The notes beneath the pieces are model-generated. The model was not told the DNA's origin. It saw only the letters and a list, made by a program, of their open reading frames with translations, and ran no database searches. Below are positions 23,586 through 64,000 of a stretch of 64,000 nt of DNA, one piece after another. A program made the position numbers and the translations under genes. The stretch spans positions 64,001-128,000 of IMG/VR virus record IMGVR_UViG_3300013099_000017; one strand, 5' to 3'. The DNA comes from a virus. How positions within the stretch are numbered: position 1 is the stretch's first letter; every line of letters begins with the position of its first letter.

Positions 23586-23903
23586 ATGAATTTAAAGTTT
23601 GATAAAGAACATTGGTTAAAAGATAAAGAGTATTTTAACAAAAATGATGGTGTTGATCTTGATGTTGAATTAATGGATAAGTATAAATATTATTTTTTTG
23701 GTTTTATAGATTCTCCTGTTGATATATATGAGAATGTTGTTATTGAAGCCAAATCAAATAATTTTCATAATGAAGATAAATTAAGATTATATCTTGATTC
23801 ATATCGTGGTACTTGTAAAAAATTGATATTGTATTGTATTTTACGAAATAATAATGATATGTTAAGATTAAGATATGTAATAATTCCGGAGGATGTTGAA
23901 TAA
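23586..23903 (+). CDS. Hypothetical protein, tandem paralog A
   Basis: FDKEHWL.DKE...LDVELMDKYK.YFFGF shared with next ORF. Confidence 0.75.
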   Translation: MNLKFDKEHWLKDKEYFNKNDGVDLDVELMDKYKYYFFGFIDSPVDIYENVVIEAKSNNFHNEDKLRLYLDSYRGTCKKLILYCILRNNNDMLRLRYVIIPEDVE

Positions 23904-24208
23904 TGCAATTAATATTTGATAAAGAACATTGGTTAAGGGATAAAGAAGAATTCCAAAATGATCTTGATGAACTTGATGTTGAATTGATGGATAAGTATAA
24001 AGACTATTTTTTTGGTTTTATGGAATGTCCGGTTGATTCATATTATGACAATCAGTTGATTATTGCTAAAATTACTGATTTATATGATGAAGATGAATTG
24101 AGATTATATCTTGACTCACATCGTGGAACTGGGACAAAATTGGTATTATATCAGATTTTACGCAATGAAAATGGTATGATACGATTAAGATCGGCAATGA
24201 TTTCATAA
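23903..24208 (+). CDS. Hypothetical protein, tandem paralog B
   Basis: Obvious duplicate of 23586-23903. Confidence 0.75.
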   Translation: MQLIFDKEHWLRDKEEFQNDLDELDVELMDKYKDYFFGFMECPVDSYYDNQLIIAKITDLYDEDELRLYLDSHRGTGTKLVLYQILRNENGMIRLRSAMIS

Positions 24209-25421: not shown

Positions 25422-26354
25422 ATGAATGTATTGGGATTGTTTTCTGGTATTGGTGGATTTGAATATGGATTACAAAATGTTGGATATAATATTAAGGCAT
25501 TATGTGAGATTGAACCATATCCAGTTTCAGTATTAAAGAAAAACTTTCCAACTATACCTATAATTAATGACGTTAGGGATATTGTTCATAATTCATTTAA
25601 AGATATTGATGTTATTGCTGGTGGATTTCCATGTACAGATATATCCAGAGCAGGAAAAATGAATGGTGGTATACGTGGTGAAAAATCTGGATTATGGTTT
25701 GAATTTAGGAGAATAATAAATGACATTAAACCAAAATATGCTATTATTGAAAACGTCAATTCAATACTTGGAAACGGAATTGAAACAGTCTTATCCAACC
25801 TTGCCGAAATCGGGTATGATGCGACTTGGACATCGTATGACACAAAATACTTTGGATTACCACAACGTAGAAGTAGAGTGTATATTATTGCCGTTCGTGA
25901 CGGAATCAAAGACGGAACCGAAATCTTCCAGTTTAAAGAACGTAGTACAGAACAACACAGATACAAAGTTCAATCTATCAAAAAGAGCTTTGAATGGGAT
26001 TATACGCAGGATGGAAGAATCGAAAATCCCTTTGCCTTTTTTACTAGACAAAGAAGTGATGAATTTGCTTGTACAGGATTAAGTTCTACTTTAATGAAGC
26101 GAGATTATAAAGATTTTACCGATATAATAGCCCAAAATGGACAATTAAGACGGGTTACACCAACTGAGCGTATGTTGTTGCAGGGGTTTCCAAAAGATTG
26201 GCTTATAAAGTCAACTAACACCAATATGTATTCATGCAATGGAATGAGTGTACCAGTTATTGAAGAAATTGGAAAACAATTATTTCAATATGATAAAAAA
26301 TATGGTATGATGTCATATGTTAAAGATATTAAACTACAAAGGAAATTGTTTTGA
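25422..26354 (+). CDS. C5-cytosine DNA methyltransferase family protein
   Basis: LFSGIGG (I), GGFPC (IV), ENV (VI), PQRRSRVY (VIII); motif X reads NGMSVPV. Confidence 0.92.
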   Translation: MNVLGLFSGIGGFEYGLQNVGYNIKALCEIEPYPVSVLKKNFPTIPIINDVRDIVHNSFKDIDVIAGGFPCTDISRAGKMNGGIRGEKSGLWFEFRRIINDIKPKYAIIENVNSILGNGIETVLSNLAEIGYDATWTSYDTKYFGLPQRRSRVYIIAVRDGIKDGTEIFQFKERSTEQHRYKVQSIKKSFEWDYTQDGRIENPFAFFTRQRSDEFACTGLSSTLMKRDYKDFTDIIAQNGQLRRVTPTERMLLQGFPKDWLIKSTNTNMYSCNGMSVPVIEEIGKQLFQYDKKYGMMSYVKDIKLQRKLF

Positions 26355-27010
26355 AAAAAGATACTTTTAAGTTTGAAGATATTGATAATTTTAATCGACA
26401 TATTGAATTGTCTATCCCAAATTACAAAGGATTAGTTGATATATTCACATCATTTGCTTATGAATTCACTACACATGATGGGGTATTAATTGATTTGGGG
26501 TGTAGTACAGGATCATTCTTGGAACAATTGCCAAAAATAAAAAGTGCTCAATATATTGGTGTTGATGAAGTTGAATTTGTAGATCAAATTAATGTTAATA
26601 ATGAATTTGATTATACTTTTATTAAAGGTGATATCTTGGATTGTTTAACTGAATATAATAATGATGATATTGATGTTATTGTATTAATGTTTACATTACA
26701 GTTTTTGGGTAATAAAAAACGTAAAAAAGTTGTTCAAGAATTAAAGAAATTTGTTGAACGTGGTACAACTGTATTAATATCGGAAAAAGTTTATTTAAAT
26801 GATAGTAAAGTTAATTCTATTTTACAAAGAAACCATAGAGCAATGAAGCGTCATAATTTTACTGATACTGAAATAGTAAATAAAGAATATCAATTGGCTG
26901 GCTCAATGTTTAATAAATCATATACTGACATTATAGAAGAATTGAATTTTATTGGAAATGTCAACCAAGTTTGGCAAAGTTATAATTTTATGGGATGGGT
27001 GATAAAATGA
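26351..27010 (+). CDS. CmoA-like SAM-dependent enzyme
   Basis: F..HI..SIPNY, DLGCSTG, FTLQFL, ISEK, EI..K match the layout of CmoA (carboxy-SAM synthase); TTGA overlap with the MTase. Confidence 0.75.
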   Translation: MKKDTFKFEDIDNFNRHIELSIPNYKGLVDIFTSFAYEFTTHDGVLIDLGCSTGSFLEQLPKIKSAQYIGVDEVEFVDQINVNNEFDYTFIKGDILDCLTEYNNDDIDVIVLMFTLQFLGNKKRKKVVQELKKFVERGTTVLISEKVYLNDSKVNSILQRNHRAMKRHNFTDTEIVNKEYQLAGSMFNKSYTDIIEELNFIGNVNQVWQSYNFMGWVIK

Positions 27011-27485
27011 TTGAATTAGATGAACCAAAATATAAACAAGCAATAAAAATGTTATATGATAATGGTATTATGTGTGAAGCTGTACGTGATGAAGAAAATG
27101 ATATAAAATTGGCAGTTGAAGGAGAATTTAATTTTTTTGATTATTATCCTTCAACAGGTAGATGGGTGCAACGATTGAGTCATGAATATTTGAGTACAGC
27201 CAGAGAAGGATTTAGTTTACTAAAATTAATTAATTATATAAAGGATCAATAATGCACGATAAAACACAAAGAGCTATGGATGCTTTGGAAATTAATCAGA
27301 TTGGGTTTGAAGTAAAAAATAATGGTATCCAGTTAATTGTAGAGGGGAATGATGGATTTATTGATTTTTACCCTACTACAGGAAATTGGAAATGTCGAAT
27401 TAATGATTCTGAAACTTATGATTCAGGAACCGGATTTAGTTTGAGAAATTTAATTGATCATATTTTGGGGGATCATCGTGGGTGA
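27007..27485 (+). other. Two small tandem paralogs (27007-27252, 27252-27485)
   Basis: Shared VEG....D(Y/F)YP(S/T)TG.W...GF(S)L..LI. Confidence 0.7.
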
Positions 27486-27724: not shown

Positions 27725-27964
27725 ATGGCTAGAAAAGGTAAAAAACGTAGTATTGCAGTATTTGGTTGTACTCTTGATGATGGTTCATAATTGAATCACA
27801 CAGATTCTGAATTTGTTTCTGTTATTGTAAATCCTGATAAAACTGTAAGTGTAACTGATATTAACAACAATAGTACAATATTATTAGATATTAATGGTGA
27901 TCCGGTTAAATCCGAGAACAAATTAATTAACGATAATATTTTGCCATTTCTTTCAATTCTATAA
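27725..27964 (+). pseudogene. Small ORF with an in-frame TAA at 27788
   Basis: MARKGKKRS...DGS*LNHTDSEF...; frame stays open for about 57 more codons. Confidence 0.4.
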
Positions 27965-28238
27965 TAGAAAGATTATTTTTGGCACGATTGGCTTTAACTG
28001 ATAAAACTTGAATATTGTCTGGTTCATAACCAAGATCACTATCAATTCTATCTATTGAAGGTGAAAATTCATTATAACCCCTTGCATTATAATCAATAAT
28101 ATGGTTTAATAGTGGACACGTTAAAGGTAATGATAAATCATATAAATCGGTTAATGTGAGTGTAAATTTAATATTTCTTTTTTTAGCAGATGCTTTCAAA
28201 TGAGATAATAATTTTTTGTAGTTTAGTGTATGTATCAT
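27927..28238 (-). CDS. HNH-type homing endonuclease (start MIHTLNYKK)
   Basis: CPLL...SPSIDRID...GY..DNIQVLS..ANRAKN; TATAAATA on the - strand at 28250-28257. Confidence 0.8.
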   Translation of the reverse strand: MIHTLNYKKLLSHLKASAKKRNIKFTLTLTDLYDLSLPLTCPLLNHIIDYNARGYNEFSPSIDRIDSDLGYEPDNIQVLSVKANRAKNNLSIIELKEMAKYYR

Positions 28239-28444
28239 AATATTGTAATTATTTATAAGGTGAAATAAAATGAACGATTGTTTTAGATGTAAGCGGAAAC
28301 ACACAACATATTGTAATAGTTGTCGTAAAAATCCAAAATTGAAAGATAATTTCATTGAAAGTGATGAATATCATATTAATAAGTGGAGTTTGGAAGGAAA
28401 AGGTGCTAAGGTAATTGATGTCACTTATATGTAATTATTATTTT

Positions 28445-47055: not shown

Positions 47056-49425
47056 ATGTCAGAAGAACTAATACTTACCAATTTAATACATAATGATGAA
47101 TTTATAAAAAGAGCATTACCCTTCCTAAAATTATCATATTTTCAATATGAAGAAAATAAATTAATCTTTGAGCAATATGTCAGATACTACGCAAAGTATA
47201 ATACAAAACCAACGGCTGAAACTCTTGCTCACGAAATAGCAGAAATAGAAGAAATTCGTGATGATACCCTTGAAAACACATTGGAAAGTTTGGGTGATCT
47301 TGAACAGGATGAAGAACCCAATATTGAATGGTTAGTAAATACAACCGAGGGTTTTTGTCAAGAACGTGCTATTTATAATGCTATTCAAAATTCAATTGAC
47401 ATTATTGATGGTGTTGATGAAAAACACACTAAACACGCTATTCCCGATATTCTTAAAAAAGCCTTATCAATTTCATTTGATGTTAAGTTAGGTCATGATT
47501 ATTTAGAAGATGCTGAAAAGCGTTTTGAATTTTATAATTTAGATCATCCAAGAATCGAATTTGACATTGAAATGTTGAATAAAATTACCAATGGTGGTTG
47601 TCCAAGAAAAACTTTAAATGTTCTATTAGGAACCACTAATGTAGGTAAAGCTGAAAGTATTTTTACTAAATTATTAACTCCAACTGGAATTAAAATGTTT
47701 GGTGATTTAAAAGTTAATGATTATGTTTATGGTAGTGATGGAAATCCAACTAAAATTATCAATACATATCCCCAGGGAGAATTACCATTATATGAAATAA
47801 CATTCAAAGATGGTAGATCAACACAATGTTCATATGAACATCTTTGGAATGTATATAAAGGCGATAATAAAGAACAAATTACAATTGATTCTAATGAAAT
47901 ATTTAGGTTGATGGATTTAAAATATTACAGTAAAAGATTATGGATACCATTATCTAAACCAATTAATTTCAATAAAGAATATAATTTTAATATAGATCCA
48001 TATTTAATGGGTGTTTATTTGGGTGATGGTACTACAATGGCTGAATCTATTGGAATATCATCTAATGATAACCATATTATTGAAAAAATAAAAAATATCA
48101 TTGATATTGATGATATGGATATCAAATATAAATCAAAATACGATTATATAATTAAGTCTAGGTTCACTGGTGAAAATGAATATTTAACAGAGTTAAAACA
48201 ATATAATTTATTTAAAGTGAAATCAGATAAAAAGTTTATTCCAAAAGAAATGATGAATTCTACAATTCAAAACAGATGGGATTTATTGACAGGATTGATT
48301 GATTCTGATGGATATTGTGGTAAACATGGAACATTACAATATTATACTACAAGTGAACAACTTAAAAATGATGTAATTGATCTTGTAAGAAGTTTAGGTG
48401 GGATTGCCACAAGTAAAGATAAACAAACATATTGTAATGGAAAAAAAGGATTACCATCTTATGATATAATGATTAAAATTAATCCTGAAAATGGATTAAA
48501 TATTAGTCCAAATAAAAAGAATGTGGAAATATTTAATAATAGAATAAAAATTCCAAAACTAAAAATTGAATCAATAAAGAAAATACACAAAGAAGAATGT
48601 ATGTGTATTAAAGTTGAAGCAAAAGATCATTTATATTTAACAAAGGATTTTATTGTTACTCATAATACATTGGGATTAGTACATATGGCAACTGCATATA
48701 TGAATCTTGGTTATAATGTTGCATATATCACAGCGGAAATGAGTGAAGAAGCAATTGGTAATCGTGTTGATGCTAATGAATTTCAAGTTAATGTGAATGA
48801 TGTAGAAGATATGGATTTCGATATCTTCATGAATAAAATTAATGCCATTAAGAATAAAACAAAGGGTCGATTAAAAATACACGAATATCCTACAAGTACA
48901 GCTCATACAGGTCATATTAAGACATTATTACAAGAATGGCAATTGAAGATGAATTTCACGCCAGATATTATAATGATAGATTATATAAATATTATGGCAA
49001 GTAGTAGGGTCAAGTTAGCTAATACCGGATCATATTTTTACATTAAAGCCATTGCCGAAGAATTTAGAGCATTGGCAGTAGAAACAAATACAGTTTTATG
49101 GACTGCTACTCAATCAAATCGAGGCGGTGCTAATAATCCAGATGTTGATTTAACTGATACGAGTGAATCATTTGGTTTACCTGCAACTGCTGATTTTATG
49201 TTGGCATTAATCAGAACAGAAGAATTGGATGCTTTGGGTCAATTAATGATCAAACAATTAAAATCAAGATATGGCAATAAGGGCTATTATGAGAAATTTG
49301 TAATTGGTTCTAACATTAATACAATGAGTTGGTATGATGTTGATGATACTGCTCAATTTGATGATGTTATTAAAGAAGATACAAAGCAAAAACATAAGGG
49401 GAAATTCGATGATTTTAAAATTTAA
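47056..49425 (+). CDS. gp41: Replicative helicase gp41 (DnaB family), interrupted by an intein
   Basis: Walker A GTTNVGK|T split by the intein; AEMSEE, IDYINIM, ATQSNR, SESFGLPATAD, KSRYG. Confidence 0.95.
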   Translation: MSEELILTNLIHNDEFIKRALPFLKLSYFQYEENKLIFEQYVRYYAKYNTKPTAETLAHEIAEIEEIRDDTLENTLESLGDLEQDEEPNIEWLVNTTEGFCQERAIYNAIQNSIDIIDGVDEKHTKHAIPDILKKALSISFDVKLGHDYLEDAEKRFEFYNLDHPRIEFDIEMLNKITNGGCPRKTLNVLLGTTNVGKAESIFTKLLTPTGIKMFGDLKVNDYVYGSDGNPTKIINTYPQGELPLYEITFKDGRSTQCSYEHLWNVYKGDNKEQITIDSNEIFRLMDLKYYSKRLWIPLSKPINFNKEYNFNIDPYLMGVYLGDGTTMAESIGISSNDNHIIEKIKNIIDIDDMDIKYKSKYDYIIKSRFTGENEYLTELKQYNLFKVKSDKKFIPKEMMNSTIQNRWDLLTGLIDSDGYCGKHGTLQYYTTSEQLKNDVIDLVRSLGGIATSKDKQTYCNGKKGLPSYDIMIKINPENGLNISPNKKNVEIFNNRIKIPKLKIESIKKIHKEECMCIKVEAKDHLYLTKDFIVTHNTLGLVHMATAYMNLGYNVAYITAEMSEEAIGNRVDANEFQVNVNDVEDMDFDIFMNKINAIKNKTKGRLKIHEYPTSTAHTGHIKTLLQEWQLKMNFTPDIIMIDYINIMASSRVKLANTGSYFYIKAIAEEFRALAVETNTVLWTATQSNRGGANNPDVDLTDTSESFGLPATADFMLALIRTEELDALGQLMIKQLKSRYGNKGYYEKFVIGSNINTMSWYDVDDTAQFDDVIKEDTKQKHKGKFDDFKI
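47650..48666 (+). mobile_element. 339-aa intein with a LAGLIDADG endonuclease; class 3 (WCT) signature
   Basis: Starts with Ala (AESIF); block B EHLW; block F ECMCI; ends VTHN before Thr; GVYLGDG and GLIDSDG motifs. Confidence 0.88.
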
Positions 49426-61090: not shown

Positions 61091-61707
61091 TAGATTTAAA
61101 ATTAACACCATCGACTACTACTAATTCATCTTTATGTGATGTATTTGGTGGAAATATTGAATTAGGAAATTTGATTGCAAGCGTACAATCTATTAAAATA
61201 AAAATAGGTTATGAACTTGAAACTCAAATATGTTCTATTATAAATAAAAATAATGAAATTTATAGGCATCATAAAACAACAATAAACAAAACAACAATAG
61301 AAGCTGATATTATTGATTGTACAAATAAAAGAATAATTGAAATAAAAAATGGTGTAAATTTTGATACAAAAAAAAGTAAAGGGGAACTTAGTTCATTATC
61401 AAAATTATATGATTATTATAATCATTTAGATTATAAATGTTATTTTGTTTCATGGGATGCAATAACATATGATGCAATTATTTCTGGAATGAAGTTAAAA
61501 CGAAACGAACAACCAGAAAATATTGAATTCTTAACAGGACAAATGTTTGCCGATTTATATGAATTTGATTACACTATCCCTCAAAAAAATATACATAATA
61601 AAACACAGGAAAATATACAAATATTTAAGAATTATTTTAATAATATTGATTTTACCAAACAAAAACAAACAAAATCATGTAATTGTGAACCAAGGGTATT
61701 ATTTTGA
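61072..61707 (+). CDS. Putative type II restriction-endonuclease-like protein
   Basis: EAD...IIEIKNG.NFDTKK PD-(D/E)xK pattern; coupled to a methyltransferase. Confidence 0.5.
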   Translation: MEKRNLIDLKLTPSTTTNSSLCDVFGGNIELGNLIASVQSIKIKIGYELETQICSIINKNNEIYRHHKTTINKTTIEADIIDCTNKRIIEIKNGVNFDTKKSKGELSSLSKLYDYYNHLDYKCYFVSWDAITYDAIISGMKLKRNEQPENIEFLTGQMFADLYEFDYTIPQKNIHNKTQENIQIFKNYFNNIDFTKQKQTKSCNCEPRVLF

Positions 61708-62393
61708 AAAATTCAATTAAAAATATTGATGCTACTATAGGATTAAAAAATATACCAAGTTCTTCTGTGGATTTAATTGTTACTGATCCACCATATCCGG
61801 TCATATCTGGTGGTCCAGGGGATAAAACATCCCCACAAGGGGTAATAAAAAGTAATGATGGTAAAATATTTAAACATAATGATATACATATCAAAGAATG
61901 GATATATGAATGTTATAGAGTATTAAAACCAAATACACATATATATATTATGGTGAATTTTTTAAATTTGTCGGAATATTTAATAGAAATACAAAAAGCA
62001 AAATTTAAATTACATAATTTACTTGTATGGAAAAAGAACAATGTCACACCAAATCGTTGGTACATGAAAAATGCAGAATACACTATATTTGCATATAAAG
62101 GTTCAGCTAAAAGAATTAATAATGTTGGTCAAAGTAATACAGTACATGAAATAAAAAATATTACTGGCAATAAAGTACATCCTACTGAAAAACCAATAGA
62201 ATTAATGGATTTATATATTAATAATTCATCAAATAAAAATGATTTAGTTTTAGATCCGTTTATGGGGTCGGGTAGTGTTGCACTTTCATGTATTAACAAT
62301 AAAAGGAATTATATTGGGTTTGAAATAGATAAAGATTATTACAATATAATTAATAATAGAATAAAAAATAATATAAACACTAAACTATTTTAA
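61704..62393 (+). CDS. N4-cytosine/N6-adenine DNA methyltransferase (beta class)
   Basis: VTDPPY; HPTEKP; LDPFMGSGS. Confidence 0.92.
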   Translation: MKNSIKNIDATIGLKNIPSSSVDLIVTDPPYPVISGGPGDKTSPQGVIKSNDGKIFKHNDIHIKEWIYECYRVLKPNTHIYIMVNFLNLSEYLIEIQKAKFKLHNLLVWKKNNVTPNRWYMKNAEYTIFAYKGSAKRINNVGQSNTVHEIKNITGNKVHPTEKPIELMDLYINNSSNKNDLVLDPFMGSGSVALSCINNKRNYIGFEIDKDYYNIINNRIKNNINTKLF

Positions 62394-62404
62394 GAAAATA
62401 TATT

Positions 62405-64000
62405 ATGACAGATGAAACATTTAGATTAATGCATGAAGCAGAAATATTACACAAAAGGATTAAAGAGTTAATGGAAAACACAAAATTTCAGGATGAATTC
62501 AGTAAAGAAATATGGCAAAGTACATATAAAGATCACAGTGATGAAAACGTTGATGATACATTTAGACGGGTAGCAACATATGTAGCAAGCGTTGAACCAT
62601 CATTTGAATTACAATTAGAATGGCAACAAAAGTTTTATGATGCTTTAACTGATTTCAAAATCACGGCTGGTGGAAGAATTTATTCAAATGCAGGTACAGA
62701 GTGGGCTAAAAAGGGGACAGGTTTATTAAATTGTTATGTTGCTCCAAGAAAAAATAAAGATATTGATAGTCTTAATAATATCTTAGATACGGTTAAAGAT
62801 CAAAGCAATACATTAAAATCCGAAGGGGGTTGGGGAGAAAATTTCTCTTATATTAGACCAAGGGGAGGTTTTATTCATGGTGTTGGTGTAGAAACTCCAG
62901 GAGCAGTTAAATATATGGAAATATTTGACAAAACTTCTGATGTTATTACAAGTGGTTCAGGTCGTAAATCAAAAAATAAAAAAGCTAAAGGTAAAATCCG
63001 TAAAGGTGCAATGATGGGTGTATTAGATTGCTTATCAGGAAATACATTAATTGATACAATAGATGGTAAAATTGCTATTAAAGATTTAGTTGGAAAAAAT
63101 CCATATCTATATTGTACTGATGGTAATGGTAATATATTTGTTAGACAGGCACAATTAGTATGGTCAAAAGGTATTAGAAAAACAATTAAAATAACTATGG
63201 ATGGTCATGAAACATTAGAATGTACACCAGAACATGAAATAATGCTATCAAATGGTTCTTATAAAATGGCAAAAGATTTAACAACTGGTGATAGTTTATC
63301 AGTATTAAATCGAAAAATGTATAATAAACAATATATATATTTAGGTGTATCAGGAAATAGAATTAAAATAGCAGAACATCATGCTACTTATGAAATGAAA
63401 TATGGTGAATATCCTACATGTACAGGTAAAAAAAGAAAAGGTTGGATGACATTAGCACATCATAAAGATGAATGTAAATGGAATAATCATCCTGATAATA
63501 TTGAAAAAATGACATTATCAGATCATGCTAAATTACACGACAACATTTTAAGAGAAAATCAAAAAAGAATTTCTAAAGAAAGAAAGGGGAAAAGTTGGGA
63601 TGAATATTATGGTAAAGAACTAGCAGATCGTATTAAAAAATCATCAAATTTCAATCATAAAGTAGTTAAAATTGAAACGCATATTGAACAAGAAGTGTTT
63701 GATATTGCTATGCCAGAGTATCATAATTTTGTAGCAAATGGGGTATTTGTACATAACTGTTGGCATCCAGATATTTTTGAATTTATTACAGCAAAACAAA
63801 ATGCAGGAAGATTGACCAAATTTAATATGTCAGTAAATTGTACAAATGAATTTATGGCAAGAGTAATTGAAATTGAAGATAATGGTTGTGATGAATTTGA
63901 TACAATTGATATTTGGGATCTTAAATTTCCGGATACCACTTATTCAAAATATAGTGATGAATGGGATGGTGATTTAGAATTATGGGAATCTAAGGGATAT
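62405..64000 (+). CDS. nrdJ: Ribonucleotide reductase, class II (NrdJ)-type, with intein; truncated by the window end (alternative start 62471)
   Basis: Manually translated open frame: GGRIYSNAG, LLNCYV, EGGWG.NFS.IRP, RKGAMMGVLD|CWHPDI.EFI.AK..GRL.KFNMSV; no ATP cone seen. Confidence 0.8.
   Translation, partial: MTDETFRLMHEAEILHKRIKELMENTKFQDEFSKEIWQSTYKDHSDENVDDTFRRVATYVASVEPSFELQLEWQQKFYDALTDFKITAGGRIYSNAGTEWAKKGTGLLNCYVAPRKNKDIDSLNNILDTVKDQSNTLKSEGGWGENFSYIRPRGGFIHGVGVETPGAVKYMEIFDKTSDVITSGSGRKSKNKKAKGKIRKGAMMGVLDCLSGNTLIDTIDGKIAIKDLVGKNPYLYCTDGNGNIFVRQAQLVWSKGIRKTIKITMDGHETLECTPEHEIMLSNGSYKMAKDLTTGDSLSVLNRKMYNKQYIYLGVSGNRIKIAEHHATYEMKYGEYPTCTGKKRKGWMTLAHHKDECKWNNHPDNIEKMTLSDHAKLHDNILRENQKRISKERKGKSWDEYYGKELADRIKKSSNFNHKVVKIETHIEQEVFDIAMPEYHNFVANGVFVHNCWHPDIFEFITAKQNAGRLTKFNMSVNCTNEFMARVIEIEDNGCDEFDTIDIWDLKFPDTTYSKYSDEWDGDLELWESKGY
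63029..63757 (+). mobile_element. 243-aa intein carrying an HNH endonuclease domain
   Basis: Starts CLSGNT; block B CTPEH; HHKDECKWNNHPDNI...H; ends FVHN before Cys. Confidence 0.88.

Follow-up and report, generated by a model that had tools for sequence, protein, structure and literature searches.

Synechococcus phage S-B43 carries the closest described relative of the system reported here. Its CmoA makes carboxy-S-adenosylmethionine (Cx-SAM), with a turnover number (kcat) ten times that of Escherichia coli CmoA (Yang et al., Nat Commun 2025, PMC12783734). Its CmoX, a homologue of the C5 cytosine DNA methyltransferases (MTases), writes 5-carboxymethylcytosine (5cxmC) at GC sites, and its CmoY joins glycine to the carboxymethyl group (PMC12783734). 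Arg350 of this CmoX (SpCmoX) stands for Asn304 of M.HhaI (HhaI) and binds the carboxylate, and the enzyme is strictly specific for Cx-SAM (PMC12783734). The present locus lies in a 64,000-nucleotide stretch of viral DNA, referred to below as the window (IMG/VR record IMGVR_UViG_3300013099_000017, positions 64,001 to 128,000). It consists of a C5 cytosine DNA MTase of 310 residues (25422..26354, plus strand; PF00145) and a phage CmoA-family protein of 219 residues, a predicted Cx-SAM synthase (26351..27010, plus strand; TIGR00740, phrog_4752). Cassettes of the CmoA-CmoX kind have been known since 2025; the Asn-type form without a ligase is the variant here. On evenly balanced probability, the window pair is a mobile two-gene DNA-modification cassette of this kind that lacks the Arg and the ligase and would carry out genuine carboxymethylation. 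The original prediction, made from the letters of the window, had referred to a reported cyanophage CmoA/MTase pair that makes 5cxmC, and this is correct, the phage being S-B43 (PMC12783734).

The source record is that of an uncultured T4-like marine phage, as judged by its primase-helicase, whose nearest relatives are found in cyanophages, Methylophilales phage Melnitz and Vibrio phage YC. S-B43 is likewise T4-like, with a CmoA homologue beside a C5 MTase homologue and a presumed role against restriction. The S-B43 CmoA gene is co-transcribed with cmoX; its counterpart in the window is one of an adjoining, overlapping pair. Unlike in S-B43, the MTase gene comes before the CmoA gene, the two overlap as TTGA, and CmoY is absent. 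The window MTase is about 26% identical to SpCmoX and belongs to another lineage, with GFPC-T in place of SPPC-S and Asn273 in place of Arg350. The source record (144 kb, 29% GC, estimated to be 79% complete) contains no match to PF00733, that is, no CmoY-type ligase. Searches for other users of Cx-SAM returned no CmoB and no second C5 MTase in the record and no tRNA genes in the window, and these candidates were set aside.

The junction between the two genes (26340..26354, plus strand) is read directly in the sequence. AGGA (26340-26343) is followed by seven nucleotides and by TTG at 26351, and the MTase stop codon TGA occupies 26352-26354. The Shine-Dalgarno sequence of the CmoA gene sits within the 3' end of the MTase gene, and TTG 26351 is the sole start codon upstream of the conserved CmoA N-terminus. 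The two real genes overlapping as TTGA, as originally proposed, are therefore directly visible. The ATG of the MTase gene overlaps the stop codon of a small upstream open reading frame (ORF) as ATGA, and the ATG of an 81-residue ORF (27007..27252, plus strand) overlaps the CmoA stop codon in the same way. The small upstream ORF, the MTase, the CmoA and the 81-residue ORF form one translationally chained unit, because the TTGA overlap is flanked by ATGA overlaps at both ends.

The MTase ORF is full-length, with a match to PF00145 (E 3.9e-58) over profile positions 1-323 of 324, and a single frame holds motifs I-X. The residues that a C5 MTase requires are present: C71, E110-N111-V112 (ENV of motif VI) and Q148-R149-R150 (QxRxR of motif VIII). 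An AlphaFold2 (AF2) model has a predicted local distance difference test (pLDDT) score of 79.8. Its top matches in the PDB are to M.HhaI, with a template modelling (TM) score of 0.70, and the CmoX structure 8YF3 ranks 14th with a TM score of 0.61. Motif IV reads GGFPCT (25620..25637, plus strand) where the CmoX counterpart is SPPCS. It holds the catalytic Cys71 and, where nearly all C5 MTases have Gln (HhaI Q82), Thr72. Among 120 members of the clade to which the enzyme belongs, here termed class 2 (an Asn-type, CmoA-linked clade), this position is Q in 83, T in 27, S in nine and A in one. The sister clade has PCQ nearly throughout.

Motif X lines the cofactor pocket, as seen in the M.HhaI structure and in engineered cofactor-pocket variants. 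In the window enzyme it is C272-N273-G274-M275-S276-V277 (26235..26252, plus strand), and N273 is equivalent to HhaI N304 and to SpCmoX R350. The letters NGMSV that had been singled out in the original prediction are residues 273-277. The accompanying claim that the motif X Asn is substituted does not stand, as N273 falls on the canonical Asn in three alignments. In a MAFFT alignment this column is Asn in 109 of 120 clade members and in all 111 canonical relatives. The clade profile aligned with HhaI places the clade Asn on N304, and the window motif CNGMSVPVIEEIGK matches GNAVAVPVVEWIGR-type relatives without gaps. A Met at the HhaI N304 position came from a single-sequence alignment, in a non-significant stretch of 4 bits, and is overruled by the three stronger alignments. 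The changes lie on either side of the Asn. Relative to the canonical HhaI/Dcm pattern (PCQ; G-N-(S/A)-V), the Cys and the Asn are kept, Gln is replaced by Thr, Gly303 by Cys, Ser/Ala305 by Gly274 and Val306 by Met275. In the same MAFFT alignment, Gly274 is found in 117 of 120 clade members against A or S in the 111 canonical relatives, and Met275 in 120 of 120 against V, I or L, never Met, in the relatives. By this comparison G274 and M275 are the changes in motif X that set the clade apart. M.MpeI N374K and M.MedI N377K are likewise C5 MTase scaffolds able to transfer carboxymethyl from Cx-SAM, but they gained this activity through a Lys at the motif X Asn (PMC12015181). The analogy with M.MpeI N374K that had been drawn for the window enzyme is not applicable, because the window enzyme retains the Asn.

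In the MTase tree, class 2 is monophyletic (support 98); its sister is a clade of ordinary GNAV enzymes (99), and both class 1 and the S-B43 type stand apart from it. Class 1 enzymes (GGTPCA(T/S)FS in motif IV; G-R-x-M in motif X) are Arg-type, that is, CmoX-like at that residue. They make up most of the MTases at 80 IMG/VR loci found through the CmoA family, nearly all of which have a C5 MTase directly adjacent; class 2 enzymes like that of the window are a minority there. By the topology of the tree, CmoA is recruited by at least three MTase lineages, because class 2, class 1 and the S-B43 type are separate.

Linkage was also counted from the MTase side, in a sample of IMG/VR loci, metagenome contigs and ten blind look-ups. 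An adjacent CmoA gene accompanies 17 of 19 distinct class 2 MTases and none of 78 canonical sister-clade genes (Fisher p 4.5e-17, indicative only since the sequences are related). Class 2 cassettes occur in both gene orders, and the stop-to-stop frames of the MTase and the CmoA overlap or abut at almost all related loci. Across 12 cassettes these two are the only conserved genes, and there is no third. All class 2 sequences encountered in this analysis come from viral or metagenome contigs. A scan of 185,579 cellular species gave, in its 80 best loci, no class 2 enzyme, only N-terminal matches to canonical relatives. The proposed two-gene module, in which a CmoA feeds a C5 MTase, is supported by this strong, lineage-specific linkage and matches the S-B43 system.

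In the CmoA tree, the window protein falls in a clade of class 2 partners (support 98). This clade is nested within a larger one (95) whose members are mostly paired with Arg-type MTases (47 of 62 CmoAs). Across the tree there are at least four changes of partner type.

In several cassettes, a second C5 MTase, termed class 3, directly follows the class 2 MTase/CmoA pair (locus L003, 5624-6640; L052, 6528-7571; L251, 3890-4939; L086, 4497-5138). Class 3 enzymes carry PC[LK]PFS and, in motif X, ERCSGIP, whose Ser takes the place of the Asn or Arg. They are the sister of the S-B43-type CmoX (99), yet are without the Arg.

The product of 26351-27010 has TIGR00740 (CmoA) as its best NCBIfam model (E 1.9e-17, 63.7 bits) and matches phrog_4752 (E 1.4e-36). 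It scores below the equivalog cut-offs of models that were built on bacterial CmoA (63.7 against 193.3 bits for TIGR00740; 52.9 against 285 for NF011995). Its AF2 model (pLDDT 91.2) has the E. coli CmoA structures 4IWN and 4GEK as top PDB matches, with a TM score of 0.78 and a root-mean-square deviation of 2.9 A. It shares with E. coli CmoA (EcCmoA), the enzyme of the tRNA uridine-5-oxyacetic acid (cmo5U) pathway, this fold and the motifs SxPxY, FTLQF, SEK, H..KR and K198. Unlike EcCmoA, to which it is about 25% identical, it has Glu for Arg199 and is without a CmoB partner and without a tRNA context. The S-B43 locus and E. coli cmoA served as comparison references for the phage family. Phage CmoAs partnered with Arg-type MTases have 74 columns with conservation of 90% or more; of these, the window CmoA keeps 56, the verified S-B43 enzyme (SpCmoA) 39 and EcCmoA 34. 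The window CmoA retains every residue on which EcCmoA, SpCmoA and the phage family agree. The protein is predicted on this basis to convert SAM (S-adenosylmethionine) and prephenate to Cx-SAM.

Arg199 is the only EcCmoA side chain that touches the Cx-SAM carboxylate (PMC4482062). The original prediction had aligned it with a Glu and had added the caveat that the product may then be another SAM analogue or plain methylation. The alignment holds, with the Glu179 codon at 26885..26887 (plus strand). The argument does not, because SpCmoA, a verified Cx-SAM synthase, has the same Glu in a gap-free alignment and Glu179 therefore does not speak against Cx-SAM synthesis. Moraxella phage Mcat8 CmoA also has Glu at this position, the consensus of the phage family is Asp, and all phage CmoAs compared have one or the other. 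The phage enzymes are thus not defined by Arg199, because SpCmoA is likewise without it. It is very improbable that the Glu leads to another SAM derivative, or to none, and to a new modification that is neither methyl nor carboxymethyl. The alignment of Glu179 with Arg199 and the score below the bacterial equivalog cut-off are compatible with such a product. The faster, verified synthase SpCmoA has the same residue, however, and the residues that EcCmoA and SpCmoA have in common are all present. The different SAM analogue first suggested is therefore without support.

In the carboxymethylation reading, the CmoA homologue would make Cx-SAM from SAM and prephenate, and the coupled MTase would take it as its donor. 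Cys71 would attack C6 of a flipped cytosine, and carboxymethyl would be added to C5. The expected outcome is 5cxmC in the phage DNA, as a shield from host restriction. Carboxymethyl would be the final product, because there is no CmoY-type ligase. The transferase would be an independent recruit without Arg or Lys at the N304 position. Room for the carboxylate of Cx-SAM would have to come from the remodelled motif X (Asn273-Gly274-Met275, at the N-terminal end of the motif X helix) and, in the window phage, also from the smaller Thr72 in place of Gln. The gene identities, the coupling, the linkage counts and the residue equivalences are observed, whereas the activity of the CmoA, the use of Cx-SAM by the MTase and the manner in which the carboxylate is recognised are inferred. 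Such linkage would be difficult to account for if the product of CmoA were of no benefit to the MTase. The clade-defining changes in motif X also favour this reading, as do the positions of Gln82 and Asn304, which are relaxed in the clade and near-invariant in its sisters. Further points in favour are the experimental proof of such a system in S-B43, the well-conserved window CmoA with its place among CmoAs of mostly Arg-type partners, the absence of another candidate user of Cx-SAM from the record, and the weak carboxymethylation by wild-type M.MedI, an Asn-type enzyme (PMC12015181). Extended to the whole Asn-type class 2 clade, the claim is a tentative one, a little short of even: all members would be true Cx-SAM-dependent DNA carboxymethyltransferases that recognise the carboxylate through x-N-G-M and without a basic residue.

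Several observations weigh against carboxymethylation. Neither published hallmark of CmoX is found: the residue at HhaI Asn304 is Asn273 and not the Arg of SpCmoX R350, and motif IV is GGFPCT and not SPPC. SpCmoX R350N is inactive with both cofactors (PMC12783734). No alternative conserved Lys or Arg appears in the cofactor-binding half of the class 2 enzymes in the 120-member alignment. The MTase is nearer to M.HhaI than to 8YF3, both by sequence profile and by fold, and in its N-terminal domain it shares 45-50% identity with ordinary methyltransferases of the PCQ/GNAV kind. The differences in motif X could stem from the two-subunit (alpha/beta) architecture of the sister clade, not from the cofactor. 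Class 2 members without a CmoA occur in Vibrio phages, including a long-form subgroup (for example in phage S4-7). The gamma-proteobacterial hosts of these phages are expected to make Cx-SAM themselves (PMC4482062). The CmoA-less members could draw on this host Cx-SAM, but they are equally consistent with the use of SAM. Arg76 was considered as a compensating basic residue and rejected; only five of the 120 clade members have it, and its place is in the catalytic loop, presumably facing the DNA as in M.HhaI.

The same observations bear on a less probable but serious alternative, in which the enzyme is an ordinary SAM-dependent MTase that makes 5-methylcytosine (5mC) and CmoA is a separate anti-defence function that travels along. 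CmoA could, for example, drain SAM or supply Cx-SAM that cripples type I/III restriction-modification, bacteriophage exclusion (BREX) or SAM-AMP signalling. The retained Asn at the N304 position, the canonical N-terminal cofactor domain closest to M.HhaI and the CmoA-less members in Vibrio phages all fit this explanation, and Yang et al. raise CmoA-mediated depletion of SAM as a possibility (PMC12783734). Translational coupling of a SAM consumer to a SAM-dependent enzyme would, however, be counter-productive. The linkage is specific to the class 2 clade and not to MTases in general, and the CmoA relatives around the window clade mostly serve Arg-type carboxymethyltransferases.

It is unlikely, though less so than a new analogue, that the MTase is promiscuous. 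During infection, the highly active CmoA would then shift the ratio of SAM to Cx-SAM, and a mixture of 5mC and 5cxmC would arise at the same sites. Wild-type M.MedI, a natural Asn-type enzyme, uses both cofactors and carboxymethylates weakly with Cx-SAM (Michaelis constant, KM, 8 uM; PMC12015181). The relaxed Q82 and N304 positions and the existence of members without CmoA are also consistent with two donors. The strict specificity of SpCmoX argues otherwise, as its Asn mutant is dead and not promiscuous (PMC12783734).

Yang et al. required SPPC and Arg350 in a survey that returned 5,615 CmoX candidates, and they relied on E. coli's own CmoA as the source of Cx-SAM (PMC12783734). Their survey would not have counted the window clade, because both features were required. 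If the Arg-less clade carboxymethylates DNA, this mining rule is incomplete; a considerable part of the natural 5cxmC systems would escape the Arg criterion, and 5cxmC would be more widespread than reported. C5 MTases would then have switched cofactor on at least three occasions in evolution, each in a different way. One of these would be a second, charge-free route to the acceptance of Cx-SAM, of use for the carboxymethylation-based sequencing enzymes that are being engineered. If the clade only methylates, CmoA has a second, non-donor role in infection through manipulation of SAM and Cx-SAM, which has so far only been speculated upon.

The MTase gene contains a second ORF in the +1 frame (25720..26082, plus strand; 120 codons with an ATG start), which overlaps MTase residues ~100-219 and motifs V-VIII. 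Its product has the motifs TLPKSGxMRLG, ESP, LSxKALxGILRR and PLP. All 21 clade genes compared have an open +1 frame of 117-182 codons at this place. In most of these, none of 300 synonymous shuffles reaches the observed length, the typical shuffled length being about half, and the +2 frame of the same 21 genes gives no such signal. Where residues are identical, the codons agree at a rate of 0.674 within the nested ORF and of 0.413 outside it, with sharp edges. The copy at locus L079 matches phrog_1008 (E 2.5e-7), other copies do so weakly (E 0.004-0.035), and the window copy has no hit below E 0.1 and none to phrog_1008. A profile of the nested gene matches 3557 library proteins. Vibrio phage S4-7 also has the ORF, although it is not annotated there. 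Comparative evidence indicates that 25720-26082 is a real, conserved gene, because of the open frame in all 21 genes, the synonymous constraint and the profile matches.

The nested-frame signal is also present in class 1 and sister-clade MTase genes. In the sister clade, the +1 frame holds the target recognition domain and motif IX, and frame 0 holds motifs I-VIII and X. In M.EcoHK31I, the alpha gene contains the coding sequence of the beta chain in a different frame (PMC2836561). The window gene resembles this system in having a second conserved gene in another frame within a C5 MTase gene, and the sister clade shows the full split. It differs in that its main frame carries all motifs, including IX, and in that the nested 120-residue product is without motif IX. 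The nested product was considered as the supplier of a carboxylate-binding residue. This was rejected, as the same gene is found in the CmoA-free sister clade and in the Arg-type class 1; it does not explain the choice of donor, because it is not specific to CmoA-linked genes. A predicted library protein of 213 residues (P0226) joins class 2 motifs I-IV from frame 0 to the nested +1 product at about residue 95, and may stem from an indel in the assembly or from natural frameshifting.

The 81-residue ORF that follows the CmoA gene is itself followed by a 77-residue paralogue (27252-27485, plus strand). Neither has a Pfam family and the former has no PHROG; the latter matches only phrog_27571, of a function not known (E 2.5e-4). 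The cluster of the 81-residue ORF (c4) is found in this window only and not in the other cassettes compared. These two ORFs are one of two tandem pairs of small paralogous genes without an informative family, the other being 23586-23903 and 23903-24208. In this AT-rich DNA, a scan for promoters and terminators gave signals no stronger than those of shuffled sequences. An HNH/endonuclease VII-like gene (27927-28355, minus strand; phrog_3322, E 2.2e-27) lies about 0.9 kb downstream of the cassette and is the only convincing minus-strand gene in an otherwise plus-strand region. An N6/N4-type DNA methyltransferase lies about 35 kb downstream of the cassette (61704-62393, plus strand; PF01555, E 3.8e-39). 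The large subunit of ribonucleotide reductase, with an intein (PF14890, E 2.9e-17), begins at 62405 and runs off the window end at 64000 (plus strand). The primase-helicase (47056-49425, plus strand; 789 residues) is covered over about 57% of its length, in two pieces, by gp41 homologues of cyanophages and Melnitz, and over 97% by proteins of the Vibrio phage YC type. This pattern of coverage points to an additional domain or a sizeable insertion in the window protein.

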